Shown here piece by piece: positions 26,376 to 47,729 of a stretch of DNA of 64,000 bases (positions within the stretch are counted from its first letter, which is position 1; every line of letters begins with the position of its first letter). The translations under genes and the position numbers were made by a program. Origin of the DNA: Cyanophora paradoxa CCMP329 (Eukaryota; Plantae; Glaucophyta); contig QPMI01000408.1 in the NCBI GenBank assembly GCA_004431415.1, forward strand, positions 868,001 through 932,000, in the 5' to 3' direction. The notes under the pieces are model-generated. The model saw only the letters and a program-made list of their open reading frames with translations. It had not been told where the DNA came from and ran no database searches.

Positions 26376-26915
26376 AAAAAAATGGTGATTCTGACTACGC
26401 GGTGGGCCCAGCCCCCGGCCCCCACCCTCTCTCCAGATCCTCGCCCCTCCCACACACCCTAGCTACGTCCCCAGCCCCCTCCTTTGAGCTCTCTGGATCT
26501 ACGTCTACCCTAGACCCTAGGGTCAACACCGGCCCTGTTCCCTTTTAGGGAGTATTATAGGAGTACTTTGGAGAGTTTTCTATTGAAAAATCAGGAAGAG
26601 AGAGGCGGCCCCCCATGCGCCGGTCTACCAGCTATCTCCTATGTGATTATTTAGTGTGTGCTTTAGATGTTCCTTGAAGCTAGCTTTTGTTAGGAATTTA
26701 GATTCGGTGATAGTAGTTTATGTTTGTGTTTCCGATCTATCAACAAAAATTTCGTTTAGATTCGGTGATAGTAGTTTATGTTTGTGTTTCCGATCTATCA
26801 ACAAAAATTTCGTTTAGATTCGGTGATAGTAGTTTATGTTTGTGTTTCCGATCTATCAACAAAAATTTCGGCGAGATTCGGTGATAGTAGTTTATGTTTG
26901 TGTTTCCGATCTATC
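26376..26915 (+). repeat. left terminal inverted repeat, with about four 58-bp tandem units
   Basis: Reverse complement of 47306-47729; units start at 26701, 26759, 26817 and 26875. Confidence 0.92.
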
Positions 26916-27059
26916 AACACAAATTTCAACAATGTTGATGTCGCCTATGTGCTGGTCCTAAAAGCGATCTCTTAATGTGGTGTTTAGACCTGTGGCCCAT
27001 TATCTTACAAGACTTAAAGGGAGTGGGGTTTTATATTAGAAAAACAAAAGCGAACGTGA

Positions 27060-27599
27060 ATGTCGGCGCTAGAGATTACAGTACCGGTCGATGTCCCTGA
27101 GGGAGCAGTTGCAATTCCAATTCATAGCAAATCCAGTATCATAGCCTATGCTCTAGTGTCTGATGTTGATGCAAATCTAATCAGTGGTAAGCGCTGGAAC
27201 CTCGCAAATGGTCATGCTAAGACGAAGTTCAACTCTCAGAAATCAATTCTCATGCAACGAATGATATTTGGATCTATTCATGATGGATTTAACATCACGC
27301 ATTTAAATGGAAATAAACTCGACAACCGCAGGGAAAATTTGCGGCTTTGTACAAAGCGTCAAGAGAACCTAGCTAGGAGTCAAACTTCAAGAAATACCTC
27401 TGGTTATGTTGGTGTAACGATGGACAAGAAAAGGCAAATGTGGCGAGCCAAGTTTATGGTTAATGGTACTTATAAAACAATCGGGCGTTATAATTCAGCA
27501 GAGGAAGCAGCTAAAGCTCGTGATCAGTATGCTATTCAAAATGTTAGTGAAGATGACCGGCATTTTCTACGTCTAAATTTCCCAGCCATTTTAAATTAA
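27060..27599 (+). CDS. HNH-AP2 endonuclease-like protein
   Basis: THLNGNKLDNRRENLR, TSGYVGV, WRAKF, IGRYNSAEEAAKARD. Confidence 0.88.
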   Translation: MSALEITVPVDVPEGAVAIPIHSKSSIIAYALVSDVDANLISGKRWNLANGHAKTKFNSQKSILMQRMIFGSIHDGFNITHLNGNKLDNRRENLRLCTKRQENLARSQTSRNTSGYVGVTMDKKRQMWRAKFMVNGTYKTIGRYNSAEEAAKARDQYAIQNVSEDDRHFLRLNFPAILN

Positions 27600-28077
27600 A
27601 TAAATGTTCTGAACAAAGTTGGCCAATCAGAATTTAGATGATCAAAAAACCGGTTCGGTCACAAAAAGGGCTTGGAGCCGTCTTTTTTTTCGACTTCGAA
27701 CCGGCAGCCGGAGCCATCGAGCTCTTTAAAAAAATAAGGTCGATAGCTGGACTTTGCGAAACGTCAAGACACTTTGTGTCCAACCAATCACAATCCGAGT
27801 TCCGTGCAAATGCAAAGGATTATCGTGCTGCGATTGGCTGGAAGTCGACACCATGTCCAACGATCCCTTGATTTTGCGACAGCTAGAAATCGAGCGCGCC
27901 CGAGAGTTATCTAACTAGATCCATTCCAAGCCCAAGCCACGGTGCAGGCTAGCCCTAGCCGTCGGTACGTATTTATTTACAACACTTAAAGAAATCGCAT
28001 ATATATTATGCATCGCGCGGTTTATTGCGCAAAAAATCAGAAAATTCTTTCTGAACATAACTTTAACCGAAAACAAG

Positions 28078-31000
28078 ATGGATCGTCGTTTTGAAATCGC
28101 CAGATATAAAGAACAAATCGCATCAAAGGCCGAATCACTTTATTCGAGGGGTTATATTCACAAAGCATTTAGTAAATCTCTGATTAATTTGACAAATCGA
28201 AATACTCGCTTGGAAACATTGCAGAAGAATGCTTCACTATTGGATGAACTCTCAAATCTCCCCCGGCCTGCAAAGAGAGTATCTTCAAAGACACTGGAGG
28301 TTTCTATTGCGACAGCCCAGGCCGATCTTGTTGCCAGTTTTAGTGAGCTCCCAGATGCAATTGCAACACAGGACACTTCAAGAGCAGTAACTGAGCAGGA
28401 TGGTTCAGTCACAACAGCACTCAATGGAACTTTAGCTGAGGGCACCTATCGCCTTTCTAGGGGCTCAGGAAGGGTGACAGCCATTCAGGCTCACTATGAT
28501 AACAATCAGCATTTTCGAGAGTGGATTACTGTGCCTATCAGTGGAGAGAGGGAAAGGGCTAATGCAGCTCGAATGGGGATAGCATTGAAGATATATGGGA
28601 ATGGACTGTTTAGAAAAGTAGATTCAGATGCAGCACAATCTAGGATGATTGAGCTGCACCAGTACATCAGGATTGAGCTGGGGGCAGATTTAACTGAGGC
28701 AATCAGGAATCAGCTTCTCGCCCTTGATGTCAAAGCTGCTGAAGCCACAACAGATTCCTGGTATTTCGATTCCTGGATCTATATTCAGTGGCAGACTATT
28801 CGCTACTTCAGGAGAATGGGAGGCCGTGGGTTGAGATTTAAATTACCAGAATGGCTGAGAGAAAAGCAAGCATTAATTAACATAGATGCACCAAGTAATA
28901 AATGCTTTCTATATTCAGTTATAGCAGCCAAACACCCTCTAGAGTCAGGACAAGACCCTCGAAGTGCCTGCCACTACAGGTCTTATGAGGGGGAATTTGA
29001 TTGTAAGATGCTAGCATATCCAACCCCACTTGACTCCAAAATGTTCTCAAAGTTCGAGGAGGCAAACAACTTGAAGCTGTGCATTTACACAGTGGCTGTG
29101 GATGAGCAGGACATCATCCCAATCCACATCAGTGCAGGTACTGATGCTATTCCAATCCTGTATGTCCCTCCTGTTGAAGGAACCAGCCAGGTTGGTCACT
29201 ATCTGTGGATAAAAAGTGTTTCGAGGCTGTTCAACAAACATGGTAAGCATTCCCTACACTACTGTTTGGCTTGTCAGAGGGGTTTTGTTACCCAGGAAGT
29301 TTTGAAAAAACATATTGACACAGACAGGTGTTTAGAAAGGAAGGAGCATGGAAGGGACAAACTACCCAAAAAAGGGGATCACATTATAAAATTCAAGCGA
29401 TGGGAAACAACAATTCAACAAAGGCTAGCCATATATGCAGACTGTGAAACACTATGCACTCAAATTGCAGAGATAAACCGAACAGATTCAAAGACTAAAC
29501 AAACAGGTGTCCACCAAATTGCTTCTATAGGGGCAGTTGCTGTATCTACTAGTGGAGAGACAGAGTGGTTTACTAAAATGGGTGGACCTGAGGATGATTC
29601 CGCGGATGCCTTTGTTAGATGGTTGGATGCAAAGGAGCCCGAGTTCATTAGAAAGCTGAAGGAGACAAAGCCAATGAATGCACTTACAGATGAGCAGAAA
29701 GAAGCCCACTATTCAGCTATGGCATGCTATATGTGTGGCAAGCAATTTGAATTTCTGAATGACAAGTTAATGGACCACTGTCATGACACAGGAAACTACC
29801 TTGGTCCAGCATGCAAATCCTGCAACAAAATCAGGTCAAAGCCAAAGTCAATCTCAATCTGGTTTCACAATGGCAGGGGCTTTGACTTTCACCTGCTAGT
29901 GCGTGCATTATCAGCAGGGTATAATCGCAGGATGGTAGCACACAGGGCCTTTAAACAAGAGATTGAGAGAAAGGTTGAAGAGAAAAGGCCAAGAATAATC
30001 AGAACCATCGAGGCTTCCAAGGCAAGAATTATGGTGAAAAATAACTGGAGTGAGCAGGAGTTTGAGCAGCAGAAGGAGAAACTTATAAAGGAAAAACTGA
30101 AACAAGCTTTTGATGCACTTGAGGAACAGTTCAGACCAGCAGACCTGCTTTCAATTAAATTCGACCAGGTTTTCCAGAACTCTGAGAAAATCTCCCAATT
30201 TGTGTATGGCATCTATATCTTTCGCGATTCCTGCCAGCATTTGCTAGGAAGCATTGATGAGCTTTCGAAAGCTTTACCAGATGATCTGAAGAAAATAACT
30301 CGAGCTTTGCACCCTGATGAGGCTAAATTCAAGCTGATGACCAAGAAGGGGACTTACCCCTACCAATATATGACATCATGGGAGAGAATGTTGGAGACTC
30401 AGCTACCAGGTCGTCGTCAGTTTTATAATGAGCTCAAGCAAGAGAAATGCTCTAAAGAGGACTATGCTCATGCCCACAATGTTTGGAGGGAGATGGGATG
30501 CACTACACTGGCTGATTACACTATGACATATATGAAGACAGACATCTCACTGCTGGCAGATGTGTTTGAGAATTACAGGAAGAAGTGTCTTGAGAAGTAT
30601 AAAATAGATCCCAGCCACTATATGAGCAGCCCCGGGTTTGCCTGGCAGGCAGCTCTGAAACATACAGGTCAGGTGTTGGAGGTATTCTATGATGGCCAGC
30701 AGGATATGCACTCTTTCATTGAAAATGGAATCCGCGGGGGTATCTCTATGATTTCTAAAAGGTATGCTAAAGCAAACAACAAATGGGTTGACAAGTATGT
30801 GGTTGGTCACAAACAAAAGCAAGGCTGGCTACTTTACCTTGATGCCAACAATTTGTATGGCCTTGCAATGAAGCAGAAGCTTCCAACTGGAAGATTCAAA
30901 TGGGAGGACCTGGAGGGTATTACAGACCTTCAACAGTACATCACAGACTTAGATGCAGAGGGAAGCAGAGGCTATGCCTTGGAGGTTGACATGCACTGCC

Positions 31001-32151
31001 CAGAGGAACTACATGATTATTTCAGTGATTATCCTCTAGCCCCAGAGCGCATGTGTGTTTTGAAAGAGCATCTATCAAAAGCTCAGAGCGCTATGATTGA
31101 AGCAGAGAAGCTCAGCTCGATAGAGAGAACTGAAAAGTTGGTACCAAATCTGCTTCCAAAAGAAAAGTATGCAGTTGATGTGAGGGCACTGCAGTTCTAC
31201 ATTTCACAAGGAATGGTGGTAACTAAAATTCATAGGGTACTCTCCTATGATCAGTCAGCCTGGCTTGCCCCATTCATTGATTTCAACACACAAGAGAGGC
31301 AGAAAACACCATTCAAACATGAGCAAGATTTGTATAAACTGATGAACAACTCAGTGTATGGCAAAACCATGGAGAATGTGAGGAATCACTGCAACTCAGA
31401 GTTGGTGACTGATGGTGAAAGATTGGCCAAAATAAACACTGAACCTAACAGGTTAAAACAGGTTGTTGTTTATGATGAAAACTTAGTTTATGTTTCAAAA
31501 CGAAAAAGTGAGTTTAATCTCAACAAACCCATTTACTGCGGCTTCTCGATTTTGGATGTATCAAAGATTCACATGTACAGGTTCTACTATGAAGTACTTA
31601 AACCGCTGTGGGGGCAGCGAGTTAGGCTTCTGGGTACTGACACAGATAGTTTGATGTTGGAGATTGAAACAGAGAACATGTATGTTGATTTGAGAAACAT
31701 CAAACAATATCTTGATGTTGGAGATTATCCTGACAACCATCAGTTCTTCGAGGGGATGACTACTGATGAGATTAAACATCTAAAGAGCCTAGCTAAAACA
31801 CCAGGGCTTTTCAAGGATGAGTTAAAGGGCATTCAGATGATTGAGTGGATTGCTAATCGACCTAAATCATACCACTGGACCTCAGAAGATAAAGAGAAGA
31901 CAGTGTGCAAGGGTGTTAAAAAAGCGTTCAATAAGAAGCTTACCAGAGACAGATACTACGAGTGCATTTTCGGAGGGAAGGCCTGTAATATTGAGGGCAT
32001 TGTTGGATTTAAATCGAACAAACATCACATTTATGTTCAAAAATCAACTAAACAAGCCCTGCACCCCTTGGATACAAAGAGGTACCTTTGTGATGATCAG
32101 TTCACCACCAGAGCGATTGGTCATTACTTAAACAAAAATCTCGCCAATTAA
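28078..32151 (+). CDS. protein-primed family B DNA polymerase, full length, with OTU-like and endonuclease VII-like domains
   Basis: NKCFLYS...GHYLWIKSVSRL, YADCE, DHCHDTGNYLGPACKSCN, HNGRGFD, YLDANNLYGLAM, KLMNNSVYGKT, TDTDS. Confidence 0.95.
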   Translation: MDRRFEIARYKEQIASKAESLYSRGYIHKAFSKSLINLTNRNTRLETLQKNASLLDELSNLPRPAKRVSSKTLEVSIATAQADLVASFSELPDAIATQDTSRAVTEQDGSVTTALNGTLAEGTYRLSRGSGRVTAIQAHYDNNQHFREWITVPISGERERANAARMGIALKIYGNGLFRKVDSDAAQSRMIELHQYIRIELGADLTEAIRNQLLALDVKAAEATTDSWYFDSWIYIQWQTIRYFRRMGGRGLRFKLPEWLREKQALINIDAPSNKCFLYSVIAAKHPLESGQDPRSACHYRSYEGEFDCKMLAYPTPLDSKMFSKFEEANNLKLCIYTVAVDEQDIIPIHISAGTDAIPILYVPPVEGTSQVGHYLWIKSVSRLFNKHGKHSLHYCLACQRGFVTQEVLKKHIDTDRCLERKEHGRDKLPKKGDHIIKFKRWETTIQQRLAIYADCETLCTQIAEINRTDSKTKQTGVHQIASIGAVAVSTSGETEWFTKMGGPEDDSADAFVRWLDAKEPEFIRKLKETKPMNALTDEQKEAHYSAMACYMCGKQFEFLNDKLMDHCHDTGNYLGPACKSCNKIRSKPKSISIWFHNGRGFDFHLLVRALSAGYNRRMVAHRAFKQEIERKVEEKRPRIIRTIEASKARIMVKNNWSEQEFEQQKEKLIKEKLKQAFDALEEQFRPADLLSIKFDQVFQNSEKISQFVYGIYIFRDSCQHLLGSIDELSKALPDDLKKITRALHPDEAKFKLMTKKGTYPYQYMTSWERMLETQLPGRRQFYNELKQEKCSKEDYAHAHNVWREMGCTTLADYTMTYMKTDISLLADVFENYRKKCLEKYKIDPSHYMSSPGFAWQAALKHTGQVLEVFYDGQQDMHSFIENGIRGGISMISKRYAKANNKWVDKYVVGHKQKQGWLLYLDANNLYGLAMKQKLPTGRFKWEDLEGITDLQQYITDLDAEGSRGYALEVDMHCPEELHDYFSDYPLAPERMCVLKEHLSKAQSAMIEAEKLSSIERTEKLVPNLLPKEKYAVDVRALQFYISQGMVVTKIHRVLSYDQSAWLAPFIDFNTQERQKTPFKHEQDLYKLMNNSVYGKTMENVRNHCNSELVTDGERLAKINTEPNRLKQVVVYDENLVYVSKRKSEFNLNKPIYCGFSILDVSKIHMYRFYYEVLKPLWGQRVRLLGTDTDSLMLEIETENMYVDLRNIKQYLDVGDYPDNHQFFEGMTTDEIKHLKSLAKTPGLFKDELKGIQMIEWIANRPKSYHWTSEDKEKTVCKGVKKAFNKKLTRDRYYECIFGGKACNIEGIVGFKSNKHHIYVQKSTKQALHPLDTKRYLCDDQFTTRAIGHYLNKNLAN

Positions 32152-32153
32152 CA

Positions 32154-33096
32154 ATGGCCCCGAGATTCATAATAACAGCTCCACCTGGAAGTTGGCAAGT
32201 CGACATTTTATTTATTGGGAAATTTCGTTTATTTGCAGCCGTGGAAATAGCCAGCCGATTTGCAATTGTTAGAAAACTTGAAGACGCAAAGCAAATCCCT
32301 GCGTTTATATCCAAGCTTCCCGGGATCTGGGGATTCTCTGGAGATAATGGCTTTAACACTGTAAGGATTCTCTGTAAGGGCAATGGCAGAGGCTAATAGG
32401 TTGAAAATGCACACTGATGTTGCCAAAGATGATCACATTTCGAAGGGGGACAAGCTAGGAGTTATCGATCGATTTGCAAGGACATTGCGGGCGATTATAG
32501 AGAAAGACTCAGAGTCCAGAGGCTCCCCCCACTTCCTTTCAAGGCTGCCAACCCTGGTCAGAGCTTATAATGAAACAAAGCACTCAGCCTTTGGAGGGGA
32601 GTACTCTCCAGCATGGATGCACAGCCATAGGCAGGTTGCAACACAGCTGCATTTAGTGAGGCAGAGGCAAAACGATATTGAGAGGGATGCAATGAATGTA
32701 CCAAAACCAGGCACAGAAGTTCAAATATTGGAACCCAAGCCAAACATATTTGCAAAGGGAACAACAAAACAAAGCAAGGAAACCTATGTTGTTGTAGGTC
32801 AGGAAGGCAACCGCATTAGAGTGGCAACAAAAGACGGGACTGTTTTAAGTCGCAGAGTCAAACCATCCGAGATTAAAACACCTAAACAGCTGCCAGATCA
32901 AACAAAAATAATCAAAGCAAAAGCAAAGGCCAGGCAAGAAACTCAATTACGTAGAGAGGGCTTGATCGATTCCAAAAAGTTTAGTTCTCAGACCAAACAG
33001 GCCCGAGAACTTAAGAGATTGGAAATTGCAGGAGAGTCAGCTCTGCGTGCTGGTGCGAGAGTTGATCGCGGCTACAGCAGCTTGAAGAGCAAGTAA
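32154..33096 (+). pseudogene. rve integrase of element C, frameshifted near 32362-32374
   Basis: Collinear with the intact integrase at 53906; WQVDIL, GDNGF, LGVIDRFARTLR; lesion is not a homopolymer slip. Confidence 0.85.
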
Positions 33097-33372
33097 CCTT
33101 TGTTTACACCTCAACCTATAGGCGCGATCTAATTCCCTTTTACGCTCAATATGTGCAAGCCTGTATTCGTTTGAACAGGCGATTTGTCTCCTTCGATATT
33201 CCTCATTGTTATGGTAACGAATTTTTTGTTGTTCAGCACGTTTTTTGCGTCTAGCTTCTACAATTTCTGGAGTAACTTCAATTTGTGGGCGCCCACGCTT
33301 GGGTTTAATGACAGAGTCGCTATCAGTAAAGTGCACCATAAGCTCTTCGTTGTTCATATAGATGATCGACAT
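33037..33372 (-). CDS. small basic helical protein, putative DNA-binding
   Basis: KRGRP AT-hook-like motif; homologue of 16859-17137. Confidence 0.7.
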   Translation of the reverse strand: MSIIYMNNEELMVHFTDSDSVIKPKRGRPQIEVTPEIVEARRKKRAEQQKIRYHNNEEYRRRQIACSNEYRLAHIERKRELDRAYRLRCKQRLLALQAAVAAINSRTSTQS

Positions 33373-33452
33373 ATCTTTAAGTGATAGAAACTTTTTGCAA
33401 CTTTTAGCGCGTTATATTCGAAAAAATAAAACCCGCGATTTATATAAATAAA

Positions 33453-33815
33453 ATGGTCGCAGACAAGCAGCGACGCTGCGCCAGCGGAACACAAATGCAA
33501 AACGAACCTCAAGCGAAACTCGCAACGATTAGAATAGGGAAGTATCGAGGGTTGACTCACCTGGAGGTAGCTTTCTGTGATCCTAATTATGCTCGGTGGC
33601 TGATGAACTGGAGCAAGCTCCGGGAAACGGACCGAGACCATTTTCAACAGGCTTTTAGGTTAATCAGTGAATCAAAACCAGAAATTCTATGGAGAGTGTA
33701 TCAAAATGAAAAGCAAGCCAGGACTGCCCAGCAGCGTTCAGAGAGGCCGCAGGCAACTGTTGAGCCAACTGACCTTGATCTGGACTTATCAGAGGCGGAT
33801 GCGCCGGGCTTTTGA
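33453..33815 (+). CDS. hypothetical protein with GKYRG motif
   Basis: Homologue of 17225-17560. Confidence 0.7.
   Translation: MVADKQRRCASGTQMQNEPQAKLATIRIGKYRGLTHLEVAFCDPNYARWLMNWSKLRETDRDHFQQAFRLISESKPEILWRVYQNEKQARTAQQRSERPQATVEPTDLDLDLSEADAPGF
33456..33482 (+). mobile_element. 27-nt micro-element directly after the ATG
   Basis: GTCGCAGACAAGCAGCGACGCTGCGCC. Confidence 0.75.
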
Positions 33816-33858: not shown

Positions 33859-33885
33859 GTCGCAGACAAGCAGCTCGGCTGCGCC
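33859..33885 (+). mobile_element. 27-nt micro-element 2 nt upstream of the HNH-AP2 start
   Basis: GTCGCAGACAAGCAGCTCGGCTGCGCC; absent at the equivalent site in B (about 17603). Confidence 0.75.
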
Positions 33886-33887
33886 AG

Positions 33888-34448
33888 ATGGAGGTCACAA
33901 TTCCAGAAGGCGCTGTTGCTATCCCGCTTGGTGGTATCCGGAATCATCGTCGAGTAATTGTTGCCTACGCACTAGTTAGTCAGGATGATGCTGAGCGCGT
34001 GCTTGGATTTCGCTGGCGTTTAGATAAAGGATATGCTCGCGCTACTATAAATGGAAAGACCGTGTATTTGCATAACTACATTAGTGGTGATCTCGAGAAC
34101 GGGTTAACCGTTGATCATATAAATCTGAACAAGCTTAACAATCGTCGCGAGAATCTACGTTTGGCAACGAAGCGACAGCAGAATTTGAACCAAAACCGGC
34201 GGGTCACAAACACATCAGGTTTTATTGGTGTTAATTTCCATCAGCAGCATGGTACATGGCGGGCACGTTACAGGATCAATGGCCGTCAAAAGCACATTGG
34301 TTACTTTGCAACCGCAGAAGAAGCTGCTAGTGCCCGTGATGCCTACGCTCTAGAACATACCAGTGAAGATGATAAGCCGTTCTTGCGGCTGAATTTTACA
34401 AACGAATCCTCCGTCCACCCATCGCATTCTTCATCTGTGAGCTCGTAG
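33888..34448 (+). CDS. HNH-AP2 endonuclease
   Basis: VDHINLNKLNNRREN, TSGFIGV, HIGYFATAEEAASARD. Confidence 0.9.
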   Translation: MEVTIPEGAVAIPLGGIRNHRRVIVAYALVSQDDAERVLGFRWRLDKGYARATINGKTVYLHNYISGDLENGLTVDHINLNKLNNRRENLRLATKRQQNLNQNRRVTNTSGFIGVNFHQQHGTWRARYRINGRQKHIGYFATAEEAASARDAYALEHTSEDDKPFLRLNFTNESSVHPSHSSSVSS

Positions 34449-35028
34449 AATTTGGTTCAGAGACATAAGGTGATGCAGTTTTAACCTCGGCAGAATCAAG
34501 CGATTGCTCTGCCTTTATTTTTTCATTTTTCAAATAGCGTAAATCTGGTACGTCCATAGGTCTGTGCTTAAACATCTCGCTTCGCAACATATCGCGGATC
34601 TTTGCTCTCTCTTGCTTGTCTTTTACATACGATTCGATATTAGCTGATCGAGCCTCGAGATCTCGCAATTTAGCTGTTAGTTCCTCGATCTGACTCTTTG
34701 ATACTGTTGGTTGTTTAATCTTCGGGCCAGAGTACCGCGATTCGCTAGCCATTGCTTGTATAATTCTAGCAGCATCATTGTCGATATCGGACTGCATTTC
34801 AGTAACAGTTTTAGCCTGTGCGTGACGGTCATCAATCGCACTGGCATTAGCAGTTGCCGAGGCAATCATTTTAGCAACGGGTGCATTAAGACGTGGGTCA
34901 CTAGCTAGTTCACCGCTAGGAGCAGCAACAGCTGCGCCCTCTGTCGCACCACTTTCGATGAGAGGGGCGTTTGGCTCTGGGAGCACCCTTCGTTCACGAA
35001 AACCCTTTCTTGGAATCCCACGGGGCAT
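34396..35028 (-). CDS. hypothetical viral protein
   Basis: Orthologue of 18128-18760. Confidence 0.8.
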   Translation of the reverse strand: MPRGIPRKGFRERRVLPEPNAPLIESGATEGAAVAAPSGELASDPRLNAPVAKMIASATANASAIDDRHAQAKTVTEMQSDIDNDAARIIQAMASESRYSGPKIKQPTVSKSQIEELTAKLRDLEARSANIESYVKDKQERAKIRDMLRSEMFKHRPMDVPDLRYLKNEKIKAEQSLDSAEVKTASPYVSEPNSTSSQMKNAMGGRRIRL

Positions 35029-35037: not shown

Positions 35038-35782
35038 TTAAGCTAAGATTTTAAAACGCTTCTTTTAGAGACAACAGGCGAAGACTCTTCTTTTTAGACT
35101 CTTCTTCTTGTCTTAGCCACTTTGTAAAGCGAAAACTCTTATCTTCAATCGCTTTATCAATATACCAGGCAGTATCATACTTCGTTCCATCAAGGACTAG
35201 ACACTGATAATCGTGAGCCCAAGTTTCGAACAAGGCTAAGAACTCATCCTTTGGGAGATGACTGAACTCTCTATAAATTGCCTCAAGTTCGGTGTGATTT
35301 GAATAACTAAAGAAAAAGCAGTAATCGCTGTTTGATCTTATCGATTGACTTAATGCTGTTAGCTTTTGCGTCATAAGAATCGTACTGATATTAAAATGGC
35401 GCCCCTGCGTAAAAAGTCGATTTACAGCTTTGCTGTTTCGCAGATCCACGGTTTCAGAGGCGGCGACAAGATCATCCAAGACAAGCAATATCTGCGGCGC
35501 TTTCTTTTTGTTTTCGATCAACTTGCGCTGTGAATCAATGATCTCTGCAACAATGGAGGGCTGAAAGTCGTCGTAAAGCTCTTTAGTTATTGATGAATAC
35601 TCTCCATTGAATTTTGTGGCCGTAAACACGACGACTCGGTTAATCTTTGGATACAGCAGCCGCAGCAGATGCTTGGTGCAATAGAAAGACTTGCCGCTAT
35701 TAGACTTCGAAATAAACAGGGCCTTAAATGGGACCCTCATTTCTTCTGGCTGGAACTTTGCGAGTTCTTGAGACTCATCCAT
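35038..35782 (-). CDS. A32-like packaging ATPase (homopolymer slip near 3' end)
   Basis: Same motifs as 18770-19498. Confidence 0.92.
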
Positions 35783-35833: not shown

Positions 35834-37222
35834 CTAGAGGTTCACCTTACGAAGACCCGCGGCATCAACAATTAGGACAGTGTGCAGAAGAGCGCGAATT
35901 TGGACGTAAATCTTGTTGTTTGCATCGTATGCAGCAGGGTTCATGATATTAAGGAAGCAGCTGCTGCTGTTGGTGAGATCCACGAAACCTGTTTGAGCTG
36001 CATTGCGGATAGCCTTCTGGCCGTCTACACAGAATGGCAGGCCAGTCAAGACGTACCGATTAAGAGGAGCATCCAGATTAGAGCATTTGAAGACATCAGC
36101 GAGAAGCTCAGCACCTTGCAGCAGGGGAACAGGCTCGTTTGAGTACAACCTCTGGCCATTCAATTCGCAGGAAATAGTTATATCACGAGCATTGGCCTCG
36201 GTTTTGAGGACACTGTGTTTTCCATCAGTTTGGTTCATATTTGTCTGCTTGCGAATGCTAACAAATAGGCCGAAGCAGAGTCCACTGATTTGAGACAGAT
36301 TAATCCGGGTGGGCGCACCAGCACCTGCATAGGTAATTGAGTCAGCATCAACCCAACCAACTTCAGTTGCAGGAATGGCAATCCCCGAAGATTTGACTTT
36401 CTCAATCACCTGGGCAAAAGTGGCCTCATCAACGTTGATGCAGTGAGCTATAATCTTCGGATTCGAAAGCTCGGGTTTTTCAGGAGTGACAGTGAGGACA
36501 TTGGGAGTTATATTCTGGCCAATGTTTGCAGGGGATGCAGCAGCAGCTCCTACGCTCCCAAGGCCATCGTCTTTAGAGGCATCACCGTTTGCGGCATATT
36601 CTGCTACAAACCTTCCACCATAGCTGGTCTCAACGAAGCCCTGGGCGCGGTCACGGAACCAAACCTCCACAGACACCTCGCCGGAGAGCGCACCAATTGG
36701 AAGCACTGAGCCCTCCCAGGGGCAGGGGATCTTTACACTGAAAATACCTCCAGCGCGATTGCTCCCCTGAGGTGGGGTTCCATGGAGCCAGCCACCAGAC
36801 CGGTATTTCTTTTTAAGCTGAGCATCGTCATTGAAAATCAGAGCGCTGTGAACAAGCCAGTCCTCAGGGACGATGTAGCTGTAGGAAGCATATTTGATTT
36901 CAATTCGCTTTACAAGAGCACCAACAGACCGCAGATAACCAGTGCGAACCAGGTCAGTGTCACCAGTGAAAGCGGTCAGCTCGGGCAGGGTAAACTGGAG
37001 TTCAAGCCCCTGAAGGAAATTGTAACGGGGTAGGAAATAAGTAACCCTCTTTCCGAAGCAGTCTCCATAGTCATTGCTAGGGTTGACAACGACACGCACA
37101 GGCTTTGTTTGGCTGGTTAGACCTAACATAAGCTCGTTATTCATAAAGAAATCCTTAGCTTCCTGCGGAGTTGTGAGCAGCTCCTTTAGACCAAGACGTT
37201 GCAAGTTCTGGGTAACATCCAT
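35834..37222 (-). CDS. major capsid protein, 462 aa
   Basis: NCLDV-like N-terminal motif; C-terminal VQIRALLHTVLIV; lies between ATPase and penton. Confidence 0.88.
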   Translation of the reverse strand: MDVTQNLQRLGLKELLTTPQEAKDFFMNNELMLGLTSQTKPVRVVVNPSNDYGDCFGKRVTYFLPRYNFLQGLELQFTLPELTAFTGDTDLVRTGYLRSVGALVKRIEIKYASYSYIVPEDWLVHSALIFNDDAQLKKKYRSGGWLHGTPPQGSNRAGGIFSVKIPCPWEGSVLPIGALSGEVSVEVWFRDRAQGFVETSYGGRFVAEYAANGDASKDDGLGSVGAAAASPANIGQNITPNVLTVTPEKPELSNPKIIAHCINVDEATFAQVIEKVKSSGIAIPATEVGWVDADSITYAGAGAPTRINLSQISGLCFGLFVSIRKQTNMNQTDGKHSVLKTEANARDITISCELNGQRLYSNEPVPLLQGAELLADVFKCSNLDAPLNRYVLTGLPFCVDGQKAIRNAAQTGFVDLTNSSSCFLNIMNPAAYDANNKIYVQIRALLHTVLIVDAAGLRKVNL

Positions 37223-38252: not shown

Positions 38253-39143
38253 ATGCGGCTTACCTTTGACAGCAGAGACAGAAGGCCAATCGATTCAGAG
38301 GCAAACTTCGTGCTCGAAATCAATGAACCGATAATCAATCCAGTTGCTGTTCGACTAACCCAGTGTGAGTTCGCAAACAGCCTTTACACCAGCATTAAAG
38401 CTGAGTATCTTTCCATCACCTTTCCCTACCTTGGAACGCAAAACGTGGAGGTGTTTGAGCCTGGCATAATTACGACTGCAAATCTGGGCGAAACAGATAT
38501 TTACAACTTTGGCCTATCATTTAATATTGAGCTAGAAGGGATTTCAATTGCGTATTTTAAACTATTTCGAGACCCAGAGACGCTGAAAATGTCTGCGTAT
38601 TGCAACCGTTCCTGCACACTGACCTGCCAGTTCAAAGCCTTATCGAATCTGCTCGGGCTGAACCGAAATGAGCCCCTCCAGCTGTCTCCTATTGTGCTTG
38701 AAGGGCCGCAAAGACCAGCAACTGCAGCTGAGCGGTATCTAGAGGTTGCTGGCATTCCAGTGACACCTGCTCACCCTGAGTACGGCGTGGATTTCACCGG
38801 AAGAATGCAGAGTATAGCACTTGGTTACGCCGTCGAATTTCCAAAGATAATCGACATGAACAGCGACCAGTACCTCTTCCTTGTCTGCGAAGAGCTACGG
38901 CCGTTTGCTTCGAAGCTTCGCCGTGGGGCTAAATCAATGTGTAATTACGGGCTCGCTCGAATCCAGATGAGCCAGGATGTTGGCAAGTTCGTTTATATAA
39001 ATCAGGAAAATGACGGCGAGTGGATCCACATCGAAGAGCGCCTGGTGCTGACCTCTCTGCGACTGCGCATTGTCGACAGAGATGGTGATGACGTCTCTCT
39101 GAATGGCCTGCCTTGGTCTGGTGAACTGCAATTTCTAGTTTAG
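38253..39143 (+). CDS. minor capsid/penton-like protein 2
   Basis: FDSRDR...LNGLPWSGEL. Confidence 0.8.
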   Translation: MRLTFDSRDRRPIDSEANFVLEINEPIINPVAVRLTQCEFANSLYTSIKAEYLSITFPYLGTQNVEVFEPGIITTANLGETDIYNFGLSFNIELEGISIAYFKLFRDPETLKMSAYCNRSCTLTCQFKALSNLLGLNRNEPLQLSPIVLEGPQRPATAAERYLEVAGIPVTPAHPEYGVDFTGRMQSIALGYAVEFPKIIDMNSDQYLFLVCEELRPFASKLRRGAKSMCNYGLARIQMSQDVGKFVYINQENDGEWIHIEERLVLTSLRLRIVDRDGDDVSLNGLPWSGELQFLV

Positions 39144-40618
39144 GTAACGTCCCCGGAAATCAAGCCGGAACGCGTTCACATTTATAAATTCGTTTGTTAT
39201 AATTTGCACATAGTTATACACCTGTGGGGTGATCAAGTGCGAGTCACTATGCATTAGATCGAAGCCTGTCATAGATGGGTTTGCAGCAAGCACATTGGCT
39301 AGGACCGTATTTTCAAATAGTGACCCGTCTCGTAAATATCCTAAATTGGTCAGAATGCTGAAATTAAATAGGACTCCGGCGGCAAAGGCTGGCCCATACA
39401 TAATTATTTGATGTAGCTCAAAAGGCTTAGGAAACTCGACTTTGATCCAGGGATTAGGTAAAGTGCCCCCTTGGAACCCTGTTGAGTTAGGTCGAACGTG
39501 AGAAGGTGGGTGCAATTCCTCAAAGTCGTTGCTTGTGATGTTTGCATCTGGAATTATAAACCAGTTGACATCAAATGGCGGCTCAACTGTTAAGGTAGAC
39601 GATATGATAAGTCTCTCATCGTTCAGTAGGTCGTAGTTCGCCAGTAGAAAGCTGCAGAGTGCATTTATTTTAGCATTTATTTCGGTTTGTTTCAGCCATA
39701 AATCAGTCGTGGAAATCAAATAAGAAATATTCGAAGGGGAGGCATCATCAAGCTTGCTCATAACTGCAGCTGGCAGCGGAACACTTAAACGCCAGTATCT
39801 AGTTAAATTTCTATCTGCATCAACTGGAAGCAGCTCCTGCATTTGAAAGTGCGATTCCAGCTCGCTCCCAGCCATTAGCATAGAAATAATTGGGCTGCCT
39901 GAGAGGGATAAGATCCAGCCCAGGGCGCCCCAGCCTGACGTCTCCGCATTCGAAAAGCCTGCAGTCAGTTGCTCACTGGCTTGGACCTCACCACAGCTGA
40001 TGCTCACAAGAACAATTGGATCCTCTGCATCATAAATTTTGCTGGCGTGGCTTAGCGCTGCAACTGAGGGATTATTTAAACAGGCGATGGCCCCATCAAC
40101 AAGGTTTTGTCTCCTAGAACCTTCGGTGGAAAGAATGTTGGCGCTGCAGAAGATGCTCTAACTGCATCACGAATCAGCGTGCTCGAGTATGGCCCATCTT
40201 TGGTGAAAACTACGGGCTGCATCCGAACTGTATCAAACGCTGTAATTAATATGTCTTTGGTCGATTCTGCAATTGTGTAGTCTAGGGCAACGTCTGTGAG
40301 CACCGACTCCAGAGGGTTTCCATCATAGCGGCTTCCTGAGAGCAAGCTTGTGAGTGATCTCGGATTTGCGAATATTACAGGTAGGTTCGTTTGATATAAA
40401 CTGAAGATATCACCTGCAGAATATCGATAAGCGAGAACAGAGCCTGGAGTTGATGGGATAGCCAAACCGGCCGCTATTATTGCCCCTGTTGAGGTGCCTG
40501 CAAAGAAATCAAACAGCTGTGGAATTGCTTTCCCAGTAATCGCCTCGATCCGCTGTAGAATTCGGGCAATGACTATGCCACGAGCACCTCCACCTGATAG
40601 TGAGAGAATGACCTTCAT
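39135..40618 (-). CDS. patatin-like phospholipase fusion, about 494 aa (one frameshift near 40105)
   Basis: GGGARG, GTSTG, DGA; one missing A relative to B. Confidence 0.85.
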
Positions 40619-40641
40619 TTTTAAAAGGGGCTTATATAAAA

Positions 40642-43600
40642 ATGTCCTACATCTTGAAGAAGCCAGTACCACTTCGTAAAGCTCCAGATTTTGTGGATGA
40701 TCGGCATATAAATATTCGCGTATTTGGGAGTACTCTAATTGACTACAATGCTGACAAAGATATACACCAGACTGAGTTTAATCGCCCAGCTGCATTAATT
40801 CTGCGCAACGCACATGTTGGCGCCCCAGATATTGCACAGAGATTTTGTCTGGGTCCAGCTGAGAATTATGTTGCTGAAATAATCGGATCCAGGGCGTTGC
40901 CGCGGCACCTGCGAATTGCCTCCTCAGGCACAGTTTCCAAATATGATTCTGGTAGATTAATCTTTAGGCTCCAAAATGATAGAGGGGTCCACACATCAGC
41001 TCTACGTCTAATTGATGAATCCAATGCTGTCACAAACAAGACTGCGGCTCACATTACAGGGCGAATTCTCCTTGGCGAAGATGCTGGAATATCAGTGCTA
41101 GCATCGCAAATCCAGCCGTTTCCCTGGGATCTACTTTTTACAGCTGCACGAGAAGCGAATATTTTATACGGTTTTGATGTAAATCAAATCGATACTGAGC
41201 CAGCCACCAGGTTAGATATTCCTGGATGCACCTTGGGCTCTATCCTGATTGAAGCTGACAGGCACCTGCTCCCTGCGTTGCATGACAGCTACGATCTAGG
41301 GCTCCGCACCAGGCAGTGGCGAAATATTCATGGAACAAATATTTATCAGGATGGTAAGAAGGTTAGCACTGAAGAGGAGGTGATCAACATTTTCAACTAC
41401 TACTTCGGACCTATTGTCCCTATACCACCTATACCACCTCTTCCAGGGCTACCGAAGCCGCCAACCCCGGACGGCCCAGGTCGAGAGCGAGTTGCTGATG
41501 AAACAGTTCCTTTCGGTCAACATATTGTCAGTTGGGAGCAAGTTCGCAATAAACCTATCTTCGAACCGAAAAAGCAAATAGATGAACAGTATTTACCTCC
41601 TGAAATCGATATATTAGAGCTTGAAGAATACCAATTTGTCCCAGATGAGGAAGAGTATTTACCTGACGGTTTCGACCCGCAAGAGTATGAATATGATCAA
41701 TATGACCCCAATGAGGAAGAGTATTTACCCGATGGTTTAGATCCACAAGAGTATGAGTATGAACAGAACTATGAACCCCACGAGGATTATTTAGCAGATG
41801 GCCTCGAGCCTCCTGCTGTTGAGTATGCGCAGCCTTATGAACACCATGAGGAATTATTGCCAGATGGTTTACAACCTGAGATTTTTGAGATGTACCTTGA
41901 CTGGGAGCAGATCAACAATAAACCCGCGAGATATCCACCAGAGGATCACAACCATGACTGGGATGAGATCTTAGGTAAACCTGAGAAATATCCACCTGAA
42001 GATCACAGGCATGATTGGGGCGATATTGATGGAATACCACCTGAGTTTCCGCCGGAAGACCATTTACATATTTGGAGCGAAATACGAGAGCAGCCCACTT
42101 TTGCATCAGCAGGTAATGTTTTACTAGGAGATATTAACAATGGGGTAAGTCTCTACCAAAATATAGACACACCAGAAAGATTACAATTAAATGATTACTA
42201 TGTGAATCGCAAAGGAATCGATGCAGGCACCACAATGGAAGGCGAATTATACATTAGACCCCTACAAGAAATGGAATATTGGGACTTGGTGGTGGTATTG
42301 AAATTAAAGACACCAAACCAGGTATCTATCTTACCAGCTACTATGCAGATGACATCCCAATGACAGGAGGATTGATCTCTCTACCATCTGATCCAGCAAA
42401 CTATGATGATAAAAACGCAGCAATCCAAATTAATGTTACTGATGTGAGTGATTTAGATTCATCAAGACCGAAATTAATATTCAGCAGAGAGAGATTGTTA
42501 CCAGATGCACTTTTGGGGAACCGAGATGACTATAAACAATGCGAGGTTGCATGGATTAAAACGAATTATAATGGTGGAGTTGGTGAGGGAGTTTTAGAAA
42601 TTAATCAGAGGGCAGCAGCAAAGAATATTCACAATGAGACCATATCAAGAGTGGTAACAGAGGATTATCTGAGAGACAATGGAGCAACAATCATCGCAGG
42701 AATTGCTGTGGAGGGTGCTTACCTTCCTCTCACTGGTGGAACTGTCACAGGTGATGTTCATGCTCCGAATTTCCTTGTTGATACTCCAAATGCTCAGACA
42801 TTTCCTGTTGTTCACCCAGGTGCTGAATATATATTAGATGCAAACACTCCAATTAGTAGAGTCGAATTACCAACGAATTTCACCTTTAATCTTGTGGATG
42901 TGTTCCCAAACAGCCATAATCTCATGTATTTCTCTTCTGAGAATTACCTTTCAGGTGCATTTTCGCCCATTGAACTCTCCATACCAAAGCAAAAGGTGAG
43001 CTACAAAGAACTCACAGATGTCCCGGCAGGATTTAGTGGTAAATGGACTGATATTACGGAGAAGCCAACTTGGAGTAGTGTAGCATTCACAGGTGATTAC
43101 TATGATTTATCAAGAATTCCCGATTTCACCACTTATATACCTCGTTGGATTGATCAAAGTGTAATTATATCAGAATCTACACTCCCTTTCAATGGGACAT
43201 GGGATAGACTATTTACTAAACCGAATTTGCATGCTGTGGCTACAAGTGGTGACTACAATGATTTAACTAACACCCCTACTGCACCGACCTTGCATGCTGT
43301 GGCTACAAGTGGAAACTATAATGATCTCGTTAATACACCAAACTTGCATGCTGTGGCTACAAGCGGGAACTATGACGATTTAATTAACACACCCACTTCG
43401 CCACCTACTCACAATCACAGCATAGAGTTGCTTACGAATTTCGGTAATTATGTGAATGCAAATGCATATGTGCAACAGGGGACAGCGAATGTAGTCATTC
43501 CTGCCGGAGTCTATTACAAAGGGGATTTTACCACAGTATCGGGAACCGTTACATTTTCTACCCCATATAATAGTGATCCAATAGTTAATGCTACTCTCGA

Positions 43601-43867
43601 AAATGATATTATCTTAACAAGTGTCAATTTTACAAACAGCATATATATCTCCGCTGAATTTGTGAGTGGGATTGCTATATTTACTTGTTACTCGGACAAA
43701 GCACTCGTAAATCCTGCCGTGTTGGTTTCAAAAATAAATTCACTTGGATTGCTATATTTACTTGTTACTCGGACATCAATTATACGAATGTGCCCCAAAA
43801 CGAAAGAACCCTTAAACTCCATTGGATTGCTGTCGGACCTCTCCAAAACAATAATATTCTCACGTAA
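40642..43867 (+). CDS. large fibre/spike protein (frameshifts near 42260 and 43700-43745)
   Basis: LPALHDSYDLG..W motif, acidic LPDG repeats, HxHxW..I..P..YPP repeats, LHAVATSG(D/N)Y(N/D)DL x3, C-terminal HWIAVG. Confidence 0.75.
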
Positions 43868-43887
43868 TTATAAAGAGCAATTTAAAG

Positions 43888-44816
43888 ATGACAACTGTAT
43901 TCACGCCTGTGTTTTCTTTGAGTGCAAGTGCTGTCCACAATGTCCAACACACTGTTTATGATTTATCTCCAAGCCACCCTTCGACTGAGACAGCGAAAAC
44001 CGATTCTTTTAATGACCAAAGCATACTCAGAGTCAAAGAACTCCGAGCTGACAAGGCTGATGGAGTCGTTAAAGCTACTCAAATGATCGTATCTAATCGA
44101 CCCGCAATCTCTTCGGGGCTGGTCACCAAAGAAAATCTATATGAAGGTCAACAGGATTCCAAAACGGCTTTTAATCCGGCTGATAGGAATTCGGCGGCTT
44201 TTCAAGTTTACAGTGGTGGGGCATGGATTGGGACTGGACTGAGTGTGAATGGGACAGTGACAGCGACTTCTTATGGGGCTGTGAGTGCAACCACTGGGAC
44301 GTTTTCAGGTCTCTTGACAGGAAATGGTGGAGTGAAAACAACTTCTGTCGATTCAGGAGCAGATTCTGATATAGTTTTGAAGCGAAATAATACAACGATA
44401 GCCGCCATCACAAATATTTGAAGGCTAATTTTTACCCATCATGTCGTGTTTATCATGCAACATCTACTGCTTATACAGCTGGTCAGGTGATCAAATGGGC
44501 AAACATTTACTACAATGTTGGGGGATGCTATAATTCAGCTACTGGTATTTTCACATGCCCTGTGGCTGGGATGTATGTTGTATCTTTTGGTGCATATGCT
44601 GATTCATCTACCTGTGATGTTGTGTGTCGACACAACGGTTCATCTACATTTTTAAGTCTTTTGAGTATAAAAACAACTTCAACACAAGGAGGAAGCCCTT
44701 GTGCAACATTTAAAGCCAATTCGGGCGATTACTTTGATGTTGCTGTGTCCCAAGGGACAGCAACAATTATCGCAAGTCAACAGAGTTTCTGTGTTGCATT
44801 AATTTATGCAGTATAA
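43888..44816 (+). CDS. fibre protein with C1q-like head (probable frameshift near 44414)
   Basis: YNVGGCYNSATGIFTCPVAGMYVVSF is a C1q-type motif; N-terminus shared with the genes at 45232 and 46102. Confidence 0.72.
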
Positions 44817-44837
44817 TAAAATGTTTTGCTATAATAA

Positions 44838-45086
44838 ATGTCGAACATCTACCAAGTGGTTCTAACTGATACTGAAAAACTGGGAATGGAATACTGTGCC
44901 TACTCTGTTCAGGATTGGATCGATAATGCTGCTCATAATCGGGCGAGAATTGCGATTGATGAGATTGTGGACAAAGAAGTTAAATCGTGTATTGCCGCTG
45001 GAATTCCGATTCCACTCACAAAGGAAGCGATTGTAGAGCAAGCGTTTGCAAGGGGACTGTTCGAAAGGCAAGCGAAATTCCTGTGA
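44838..45086 (+). CDS. small fibre-associated hypothetical protein
   Basis: TAAATG start; QDWIDNAAHNRARIAIDEIV; may extend to about 45100 if GGGG is really GGGGG. Confidence 0.7.
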   Translation: MSNIYQVVLTDTEKLGMEYCAYSVQDWIDNAAHNRARIAIDEIVDKEVKSCIAAGIPIPLTKEAIVEQAFARGLFERQAKFL

Positions 45087-45231
45087 GTGCTCCTATGTAA
45101 AGAACTCGAATTCGAAGAATGAGAGATGGGTTAATTGTTATTTTTCATAGATCATGCATAAGAAAGGCATGTATCTTGCATGTCCTTCTTGAAAGTCGTT
45201 TATTTTTCTTTCCTTCTTAGTAAAAGAAGCA

Positions 45232-46077
45232 ATGGGTGAATATAATCGAGTTCAACTTCCAATATATTCCCTTGGATCCCCTGCTATGCACTTTCGCCAG
45301 CATGAAGTAAATGATGAGGTTCGTGGATTAGAATCCACAGAGAGACCCAATTCCAATGGTAACTCCTTTGATAAGAATTCGATTATTCGAGTTAAAGAAC
45401 TTCGAGCCGACAAAAACTCAGGTGTGGTTAAAACAACTCGACTTCTTGTGACTAATGCCAACTTCTTTCAACCTACCAATGGAGGCCCTGATGCTTACAG
45501 TGTAAATCTGAAAGCTCTTGATTTCGATAAAAACACTGCTGCTGCTACAATTCGTTCAGGCGGTGCTTTTATTGGTGGAGGTTGCCGTGTATCCGGTCAA
45601 CTCTCTTCATCTGTTTCGTTTAATGATGTCCCTGATACTCTCGATCAAAATGTAGAGAATCCACAGCGTATTAGATTATATACACCTGTTGCACAGCAAC
45701 CATTTGTTCAATTTTACGTAGGTTATACAGTTACACTTGCAACCTCTGAACTAATTGAAGGAACCAAAAGAGTAATGAGAGGTCTCGCCATTCCAAACGC
45801 CATGCTCTCTTTATGTAGAGCCAACAACAACCAGCCAGGTCACAGGTACTATTTCAGTGTGCAGGGATATGATCATTTCGGCACAGGCTTCTGTGTTTAT
45901 AACAATAATTTCACTTACGATTTGTTTGTTACAGACATTGGCAAATATACTATAACAATTATCGGTTTGAGAACAGATATAGCAGCTGTTTCAGTTCTCA
46001 GAGGTGTTACTCCTGATACTCTTTCAGTATCAGGGTTTTACCAGGAACCAGATGTGATCGATGACCCCACTCCCTAA
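45232..46077 (+). CDS. fibre-like paralogue 2
   Basis: IRVKELRADK..GVVKTT and SGGAFIGGG shared with paralogues. Confidence 0.75.
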   Translation: MGEYNRVQLPIYSLGSPAMHFRQHEVNDEVRGLESTERPNSNGNSFDKNSIIRVKELRADKNSGVVKTTRLLVTNANFFQPTNGGPDAYSVNLKALDFDKNTAAATIRSGGAFIGGGCRVSGQLSSSVSFNDVPDTLDQNVENPQRIRLYTPVAQQPFVQFYVGYTVTLATSELIEGTKRVMRGLAIPNAMLSLCRANNNQPGHRYYFSVQGYDHFGTGFCVYNNNFTYDLFVTDIGKYTITIIGLRTDIAAVSVLRGVTPDTLSVSGFYQEPDVIDDPTP

Positions 46078-46101
46078 AATATATATATATGTTTAATATA
46101 A

Positions 46102-46934
46102 ATGGCTGAACCACCTCCAATTGAGCGTATTGTTACAGCACAGCTTTCATTAGCTGCACCAGCTAACCACGTTCTGCAGCATGCTACTTTCGATGATGTA
46201 GAAGGTCTGCAATCAACAGAGGTTCAACCTACGATGAACACCTTCGGTTCCACCCATAAACTGAGATTGCAGGAACTCAGGTGCGATAAAAATAATGGTA
46301 TAGTTAAGACCACGAAATTACTTGTAACTAATGCGAATTTTAGTGCCCATTATGGTGATCCAGACAGTTATGGCGCCCCTCTTTCGACTTATTCTTTCGA
46401 GTCTAGGTCAGGAGCTATTAACTGCAAGACGGGGGAGCATATATTGGTGATGGTTTGCGGGTTGGTGGAGCTGTTGGTGCTCCTCTCTTTGTTAATGATC
46501 AACCAAACCCTATTGATCCTAACACGAGAATTCGAACCTATTTGCCAAGTATGAATGCACCATATATTATAAAGATCTTCCCAATCGTTGTTAATGAGCA
46601 GACATCAGTAGTTGATTCTCTTGTGGAAATTGGTGACCACTACAAGGTGGTTGTTGATATCCCTCCAGACGTCTACGCTGTTTGTCAAGTAGAGGGTGGA
46701 ACCCCAAACATTGCTGTGGTGATTACTCCATATGATAATTTCGGGATCGCTTATCATGGTGTAAATTTCGGCCTTGAAGACTACCAGTTCTTGGTGAGAG
46801 CTACAAAATTCGGTATTTATAAATGCATTCTCTATGCAGAAAGAACCGATGCTATCGCAAGGCAGAATACCTATGCGGAGTACTACGGCACTAATAGGTA
46901 CTTCCCCATTTTCGGACAGGATACTGCCCCGTAG
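46102..46934 (+). CDS. fibre-like paralogue 3 (frameshift at G run near 46431)
   Basis: LRLQELRCDKNNGIVKTT; corrected frame reads TGGAYIGDGLRVGG. Confidence 0.75.
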
Positions 46935-47305
46935 AGAATATCCCTAATTATTTGCCGAGGCCTCTGATAATGGCCTCATGTCTTGCAGGGCTGTTTGAGT
47001 TGCTACATCATTTCCATGCACACTCCCGCTTGCAATCCCAGTGCTGCACAGCGGATCTTGACCTTTCCTTTGGTGGTGATCATGACAGCAACAGCGCCAA
47101 CCGTGAAGCTGAACGCGAAGCTCTTCAGCACGCAGAAGATCTAGCACCGCCCGGTGCGCACTACCAGAGGCCCCGGACTCCGTCAATAACGTACCATCTA
47201 TATCAGGATGCTTGAAGGCTCGCTGAGGCGGCCTGGACATCCTTTTTGTTTGCTTTTGAAAAATAAACAGCTAGCCGTTTTGAACAGTCCAGCTGCTGCA
47301 GCTCG

Positions 47306-47729
47306 GATAGATCGGAAACACAAACACAAACTACTATCATCGAATCTCGCCGAAATTTTTGTTGATAGATCGGAAACACAAACATAAACTACTATCACCG
47401 AATCTAAATTCCTAACTAAAGCTAGCTTCAAGGAACATCTAAAGCACACACTAAATAATCACATAGGAGATAGCTGGTAGACCGGCGCATGGGGGGCCGC
47501 CTCTCTCTTCCTGATTTTTCAATAGAAAACTCTCCAAAGTACTCCTATAATACTCCCTAAAAGGGAACAGGGCCGGTGTTGACCCTAGGGTCTAGGGTAG
47601 ACGTAGATCCAGAGAGCTCAAATGAGGGGGCTGGGGACGTAGCTAGGGTGTGTGGGAGGGGCGGGGATCTGGAGAGAGGGTGGGGGTCGGGGGCTGGGCC
47701 CACCGCGGCAACGCAATTTACATTTTTTT
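47306..47729 (-). repeat. right terminal inverted repeat, with about two 58-bp units
   Basis: Reverse complement of 26376-26915 with a few mismatches. Confidence 0.92.

Follow-up and report, generated by a model that had tools for sequence, protein, structure and literature searches.

Endogenous Polinton-like viruses (PLVs) of the glaucophyte alga Cyanophora paradoxa have so far been known mainly as counts. In the available portions of the published tables, Bellas 2023 (PMC10120064; Table S4) records 366 capsid matches in C. paradoxa in two unnamed clusters, and Bulzu 2025 (PMC12220804; Table S6) scores 156 glaucophyte elements, of which 139 have an A32 ATPase, 89 a lipase, 85 an rve integrase and 40 HNH_3, with 0 in all nine protease columns. 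The latter work also describes patatin-discoidin fusions in elements of glaucophytes or rhizarians, and adintovirus-like proteins in C. paradoxa contigs had already been noted (PMC8502044). The locus described here lies in a window of 64,000 nucleotides (nt) from C. paradoxa CCMP329 (contig QPMI01000408.1, positions 868,001 to 932,000; coordinates below are those of the window) and consists of an element at 26376-47729 that is very probably an integrated PLV of this alga, one copy of a multi-copy, protease-free family. What is new is a complete map of the genes in a single member of this family, which those sources otherwise only count.

The link to that family comes from the capsid. Among 5.8 billion proteins, the closest relative of the element's capsid, and the only close one, is a named C. 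paradoxa protein (P0001) that is 63-64% identical over its full length, where at least 25-30% identity to a listed Bellas 2023 cluster member was the criterion for membership. By contig name, length and visible sequence, compared by eye, this protein is row 106 of Bellas 2023 Table S2, listed there as a confirmed PLV capsid with an iridovirus capsid as best HHpred match (98.5%). Within Table S4 of the same work (PMC10120064), the family's clusters stand in the 'iterative HMM' (hidden Markov model) columns and not in the Maverick-Polinton columns, the columns having been counted by eye. A search of 1.84 billion representatives with the capsid returned 7 matches and no named Polinton. Besides the C. 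paradoxa protein, three of the matches are unnamed and capsid-like; the other three (P0004, P0006 and P0007; 3/7) are long low-complexity proteins and were dropped as spurious.

The element shares with the tabulated Cyanophora PLVs (PMC10120064, PMC12220804) the missing protease, the A32 ATPase, the lipase, the rve integrase, HNH_3 and fibre genes. It differs in that its capsid sequence is not the listed one; the tables give counts and no gene map, and two pentons and a C1q domain are not mentioned in the portions available. A preliminary description of this DNA had implied that its combination of features was novel, a view that does not hold, as the combination is already tabulated for glaucophyte elements (Bulzu 2025 Table S6). 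Thus a giant-virus-like capsid, a lipase and the lack of a protease are traits of the family and do not mark a new lineage.

Element ends and particle genes

The element is 21,354 nt long, retains both ends and is flanked by terminal inverted repeats:

26371..26375, left target-site duplication CTCAT, the same 5 nt as outside the right end
26376..26799, plus strand, left terminal inverted repeat, 424 nt
26697..26927, a 58-nt unit present four times in tandem where the left repeat ends on its inner side (about 1.8 units in the right repeat)
47306..47729, minus strand, right terminal inverted repeat, 424 nt
47730..47734, right target-site duplication CTCAT, directly outside the element

The two repeats are identical at 406 of 424 positions (96%), a seven-letter A/T run terminates both element ends, and the occurrence of CTCAT on both outer sides has a chance probability of about 0.001; a 6-nt duplication, TCTCAT, is an alternative if the right T-tract is counted one shorter. 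The coordinates first proposed for a 21.35-kb element with both ends are thus exact, and its size, inverted repeats and 5-nt duplication correspond to the broad definition of Polinton-like viruses (14-40 kb, often with a 5-6 nt duplication). Coding sequence makes up 93% of the DNA between the repeats, and the G+C content of the element is 44% vs 60% in the right flank. Within the repeats, the outermost 9 nt match, the following 13-nt block differs (26385-26397 vs 47708-47720), and the next 402 nt are 98% alike. The 127 nt separating a truncated sister element from this one (26249-26375) and the right flank at 47730-47800 have a short, 80% similar motif in common; the target site is therefore a small repeat.

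The genes attributed to the particle and its packaging occupy the centre of the element:

34396..35028, minus strand, unassigned coiled-coil-like open reading frame (ORF), 210 amino acids (aa), adjoining the ATPase and 89% conserved in the sister
35051..35782, minus strand, A32-like genome-packaging ATPase, 243 aa (PF04665, E 8e-10, above cut-off; Walker motifs)
35834..37222, minus strand, major capsid protein modelled as a double jelly roll, 462 aa, uninterrupted frame
37269..38225, minus strand, minor capsid (penton) candidate 1, 318 aa (Atlas clusters; DUF5901, E 0.12)
38253..39143, plus strand, minor capsid (penton) candidate 2, 296 aa (position; weak likeness to candidate 1)

In its predicted structure the capsid protein is a double jelly roll. 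The model, built from an alignment of 8 rows, has a predicted local distance difference test score (pLDDT) of 63 and a predicted template modelling score (pTM) of 0.70; modelling from the single sequence gave no usable fold (pLDDT 29.5). Foldseek places Vp54 of PBCV-1 first (E 4e-17), with capsids of nucleocytoplasmic large DNA viruses (NCLDVs) likewise retrieved from the viral library, and structural comparison with PBCV-1 gives Z 30.0 over 359 aligned residues (root-mean-square deviation 3.4), against 20.0 for PRD1, 15.8 for Sputnik and 15.4 for mavirus. Identity to NCLDV capsids in these fold matches is 7-15%. The nearest clusters in Atlas, a language-model resource, score 0.97-0.98 and bear a Nucleocytoviricota label, with Capsid_N/Capsid_NCLDV in 12-30% of their members, at a recognition value (1832) below the tool's mark. 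Sequence searches against solved structures returned nothing for the capsid, its alignment, the polymerase or the ATPase; the homologue search with the ATPase was empty, as were locus scans of viral and metagenome contigs for the gene order of relatives. The capsid had been called NCLDV-like from the outset, and as a statement about fold this stands. As an argument about lineage it does not, because Vp54 is the best or only match for ordinary Polinton and Tlr capsids as well (PMC4028283), and Polinton and PLV capsids in general resemble those of NCLDVs (PMC10120064).

The two penton candidates are divergently transcribed, as first described, with starts 27 nt apart, and they are unequally supported. 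Candidate 1 lies at 0.98 to DUF5901 clusters and at 0.97 to the Sputnik V18/19 cluster in Atlas, which, at a recognition value below the tool's mark, is weak to moderate evidence. Candidate 2 is likely a second penton, judged by its position, by motifs taken to be those of pentons, and by a weak likeness to candidate 1 that is co-linear at both ends (z 2.5, with 6/500 shuffles as good and one control at z 2.2); hhalign gives the pair a probability of 0.7%, and candidate 2 has no Pfam match and no homologue in the homologue search. Of the two pentons originally claimed, the first is therefore backed by language-model clusters and the second remains a candidate.

No protease family occurs among the Pfam matches of all 146 stop-to-stop frames of at least 50 aa, and a motif scan found no adenain-type motif pair in a real gene, in agreement with the initial failure to recognise one. 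The adenain/Ulp1-type maturation protease that characterises Mavericks and Polintons is thus absent from the 146 frames, within the limits of searches that a very divergent enzyme could escape.

Replication, integration and attachment genes

The left arm carries the replication and integration module:

27060..27599, plus strand, HNH-AP2 endonuclease 1, 179 aa (PF13392, E 1e-11; PF00847, E 2e-8)
28078..32151, plus strand, B-family DNA polymerase, 1357 aa, with exonuclease and polymerase motifs and an endonuclease VII-like insert
32154..33096, plus strand, rve-type integrase, split over two frames near 32360-32390 (rve, E 0.004, below cut-off)
33037..33372, minus strand, unassigned small basic ORF, 111 aa, 36% identical to its counterpart in the sister
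33453..33815, plus strand, 120-aa ORF with a weak ExoX C-terminal-like match (PF20600, E 0.002), starting with a 27-nt short insert
33888..34448, plus strand, HNH-AP2 endonuclease 2, 186 aa, 48% identical to endonuclease 1 (Pfam above cut-off)

Conserved stretches of the 1357-aa polymerase at residues 453, 597, 922, 1086 and 1188 are taken here to be the exonuclease and polymerase motifs. The protein contains an endonuclease VII-like insert (PF02945, E 5e-7) and shows no PF03175 match in the Pfam scan; two further polymerases encoded in the window share 41-48% identity with it. The two integrase pieces are 69% and 56% identical to an uninterrupted 311-aa integrase at 53906. By motifs and likeness, then, the element has the protein-primed PolB and rve integrase of Mavericks and Polintons; we infer that the polymerase is protein-primed, with priming at the inverted repeats, and the integrase is broken. 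Cys276 and His374 of the polymerase form a pair placed as in the vOTU protease domain, an assignment made by motif, with no profile match behind it. A vOTU domain has been described in Polinton polymerases (10.1101/2024.03.18.585575). The element thus probably encodes a cysteine protease domain, vOTU-like and part of the polymerase, that is thought to release the terminal protein and is not a capsid maturation enzyme.

The right arm holds the lipase and a series of fibre-like genes:

39135..40618, minus strand, patatin-like phospholipase with a C-terminal domain (PF01734, E 6e-23), one-base break near 40104
40642..43961, plus strand, long fibre-like protein in two frames, one-base break near 42258, with 54- and 66-nt repeats
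43888..44816, plus strand, fibre-tip-like protein ending in a C1q domain, two frames (PF00386, E 1e-10)
44838..45086, plus strand, unassigned 82-aa ORF
45232..46077, plus strand, 281-aa paralogue, related over the N-terminal 120 aa to the ORFs at 43888 and 46102 (37-43%)
46102..46934, plus strand, second paralogue in two frames, one-base break near 46430

The patatin match bears out the lipase of the preliminary description. The C-terminal domain of this gene is presumably discoidin-like, going by a motif, and the long fibre-like protein has matches to PHROG tail-fibre and tail families down to E 2e-9.

Standing of the element and its placement

A sister copy, not mentioned in the preliminary description, precedes the element in the window:

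3162..26248, plus strand, truncated sister element with a different, PF03175-type polymerase and a different integrase, the latter carrying a 10.3-kb LTR-bounded insert, followed by genes ordered as in the element as far as the fibre gene

Its identity to the element is 99% over 21078-26248 and 84% over 17255-20994, which marks it as a recombinant. The same capsid module is found 16 kb upstream beside a different polymerase, one of PF03175 type that barely aligns with the focal polymerase. Between the two copies, silent changes far outnumber amino-acid changes in the ATPase (72 vs 12 of 224 codons) and in the capsid (85 vs 16 of 460 codons), an excess that suggests selection for making particles during the divergence of the sub-lineages.

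The element was first called a complete virus, which is correct as to its ends, both of which are present, but not as to its genes, because the integrase is split over two frames. Across that break one independent contig equals the window (0 differences), and a sibling contig, present in three runs, is shorter by 7 nt. The remaining breaks are of another kind: all 8 of the listed single-base differences between window and contigs fall at homopolymer runs, including those that split the patatin, the fibre gene and the last gene, and the patatin match goes on in the next frame (to the C-terminal half of patatin 1oxw, E 0.008), so that most breaks besides that of the integrase are likely assembly slips. 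Sibling contigs also hold 28 more bases near 44411, in the C1q gene. In this copy the frames of the capsid, the ATPase and both penton candidates are open. At least half of the words of the structural region are contained in 20 of the 24 listed runs, all under one organism label, and each of three runs gave 1024-1759 contigs on the element, divided in rough thirds among 99+, 95-99 and 90-95% identity, revealing many variants. No RNA run is listed among those containing the region, and one run, guessed to be RNA, gave short pieces over 3 of 30 bins; both results are uninformative on expression. Two further measures were set aside: summed contig depth, which was greater for the capsid module than for the polymerase and is not a copy number, and a TATA-like word upstream of 11 of 17 starts (5 expected), which was chosen post hoc and cannot separate host from helper-virus transcription.

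The gene content suggests how such a virus might propagate. Its own protein-primed polymerase likely replicates a linear genome, which the A32 ATPase would package into a double-jelly-roll capsid without a maturation protease; pentons at the vertices would carry the fibre, C1q and discoidin-like proteins for attachment, and the patatin would serve membrane crossing at entry. Entry into the chromosome would likely be by the rve integrase that is broken in this copy, where the frameshift may have arisen after insertion, unless the copy integrated with a sister's enzyme. With that frameshift the copy cannot now excise or reinsert with its own integrase, and its spread would likely need sister copies, as a source of integrase, or a helper virus. 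Recombination joins capsid modules to different polymerase-integrase modules, as the sister illustrates.

Several points weigh against this interpretation. Neither a virion nor a free genome nor a transcript was observed. Support for the integrase break comes from a single contig of low depth (2.9), which may derive from the material from which the window was assembled, and the 28 nt lacking near 44411 may truly have been deleted here. The capsid model depends on 8 rows, with 143 of 462 residues at pLDDT below 50, and penton candidate 2 is weakly supported. A very divergent protease could have escaped the profile searches because the same searches missed the capsid itself, and four short ORFs (82-210 aa) together with the paralogous 120-aa domain carry no assigned function or fold.

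Among other readings, the one that fares best assigns the element to the small viruses related to Nucleocytoviricota, on the side of Zephyr, Zora, VC40 and the Mriyaviruses, the capsid likeness then reflecting closer descent; it is compatible with an integrated PLV and concerns placement, and it is possible, though doubtful. The nearest Atlas clusters (0.97-0.98, Nucleocytoviricota label) agree with it, as does the structural comparison, where PBCV-1 (Z 30) leads Sputnik and mavirus (Z 15-16) by a wide margin, a result that, with no protease found, also separates the element from virophages (Virophaviricetes). According to a framework preprint (10.64898/2026.06.19.733378), moreover, Zora members often have rve and Zephyr members often a lipase. 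On the other side, NCLDV capsids are generally the best matches of Polinton and PLV capsids (PMC10120064, PMC4028283), identity to NCLDV capsids is only 7-15%, the Atlas recognition value (1832) is below the tool's mark, and no VLTF or HUH family is among the Pfam matches of the 146 frames. The fold ranking in the PDB cannot separate NCLDV from Polinton or PLV capsids because no Polinton or PLV capsid is among the rows shown. Compared with Zephyr, Zora (VC102), VC40 and the Mriyaviruses as the preprint presents them, the element has a capsid nearest NCLDV-type clusters, and rve or a lipase as in part of their members; it differs in that no HUH or VLTF gene was recognised by Pfam and Mriya48 was not recognised in a scan that had no profile for it, and no endogenous Zephyr member is reported in the text available. 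For Mriyaviruses proper, the presence of an integrase and the 21-kb size do not fit.

That preprint, in its available portions, does not name glaucophytes; it finds two pentons in Trimcap B members and treats switches of replication module as common. Trimcap group B PLVs, with two penton genes in several members, are comparable to the element with its two penton candidates, and differ from it in having three major capsid genes vs one here. A bolder placement, possible though rather unlikely, is that the glaucophyte elements form an unplaced branch on the giant-virus side, defined by an NCLDV-type capsid, two different pentons, no protease and interchangeable Maverick-type polymerase-integrase modules. 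If so, integrated members of that continuum would be available in a culturable alga, the Zephyr group being so far without a known host, and protease-free assembly with a two-penton vertex would be directly testable. The finding would gain importance if capsid and ATPase put the family among the NCLDV-related small viruses, or if particles came to light; the literature searched on glaucophytes yielded no report of a virus particle from one.

It is unlikely that the family no longer makes particles and spreads as a transposon, or that the locus is a dead relic. The integrase break and the truncated or interrupted neighbours are what such a history would leave, but the open capsid, ATPase and penton-candidate frames, the marked predominance of silent over amino-acid changes between sub-lineages in the capsid and ATPase, the retained fibre, C1q and lipase genes and the 96% likeness of the repeats are at odds with it.

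Aquintoviricetes PLVs (Tetraselmis TsV, Gezel-14T) share with the element a morphogenetic module that lacks a protease (PMC12220804), as well as a variable replication module and the grouping of fibre and discoidin genes on one arm (10.1101/2025.10.09.676808), but mostly use helicase-type replication proteins, and no capsid sequence link to them was found. Dependence on a giant virus has been shown for Tetraselmis PLVs (10.1101/2025.10.09.676808). With groups 1 and 2 of Mavericks/Polintons the element has in common a size of about 20 kb, terminal repeats, a target duplication, pPolB and rve integrase, ATPase, capsid and a (candidate) penton; it differs in its lack of a maturation protease, the lack of a detected capsid sequence link, its likely algal host, its two penton candidates and a patatin in place of PLA2. 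That it is a classical Maverick/Polinton (Polintoviricetes) that lost its protease gene is highly improbable: its size, terminal repeats, target duplication and a pPolB directly before the rve integrase would suit one, a protease is found in only 74% of Polintons (PMC4028283) and phospholipase is common in group 2 Mavericks (10.64898/2026.06.19.733378), but no named Polinton is among the 7 capsid matches over 1.84 billion representatives, the MCP-POL profile is scored in only 2/156 glaucophyte elements (Bulzu 2025 Table S6, PMC12220804), and the protease is missing family-wide and not in one copy alone. The earlier preference for a PLV over a classical Maverick is supported by capsid clusters outside the Maverick columns and by the absence of a recognisable protease, and qualified by a PolB and rve integrase that form the classical Maverick module.

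Neighbouring elements and small inserts

Further fragments of related elements surround the locus. A third polymerase-integrase element is represented by its right part at positions 1-2992 of the window; it contains a DUF5710 gene and tandem repeats of 132 nt, and its end, CATTTTTT, is like that of the focal element. A fragment of a fourth, at 52146-55091, comprises a C-terminal polymerase half (47% to the focal one), the uninterrupted integrase of 311 aa, and a GC-rich end with a T-tract after it. The insert in the sister's integrase (6480-16763) is GC-rich, 10.3 kb long and bounded by two TG..CA repeats of 283 nt that are identical, flanked on either side by CAAGG as a 5-nt duplication; no reverse transcriptase was found in its 23/23 long frames, so that it is possibly a non-autonomous long terminal repeat (LTR) element.

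A family of 27-84 nt inserts is scattered over the two copies (19507-19536, 20994-21077 on the minus strand, 22064-22090, 24915-24971, 33456-33482 and 33859-33885). The inserts have the common ends GTCGCAGACAAG and GCTGCGCC, are present in one copy and absent in the other, and show no target duplication; where they fall within coding sequence, their length is 27 or 57 nt and the frame is kept. They are unlikely to be spliced introns, as GT..AG removal would shift the frame in both coding cases, and they fold no better than shuffles. Replitrons have been reported absent from glaucophytes. Contig joints suggest that the inserts vary among copies, and one contig from the run guessed as RNA has the 30-nt unit in another context.

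Positions 47948-49695, 57665-59104, 61034-62446 and 63662-63946 hold GC-rich degenerate tandem arrays, with periods of 41-60 nt and about 507 nt, and, near the window end, a cluster of short palindromic repeats.

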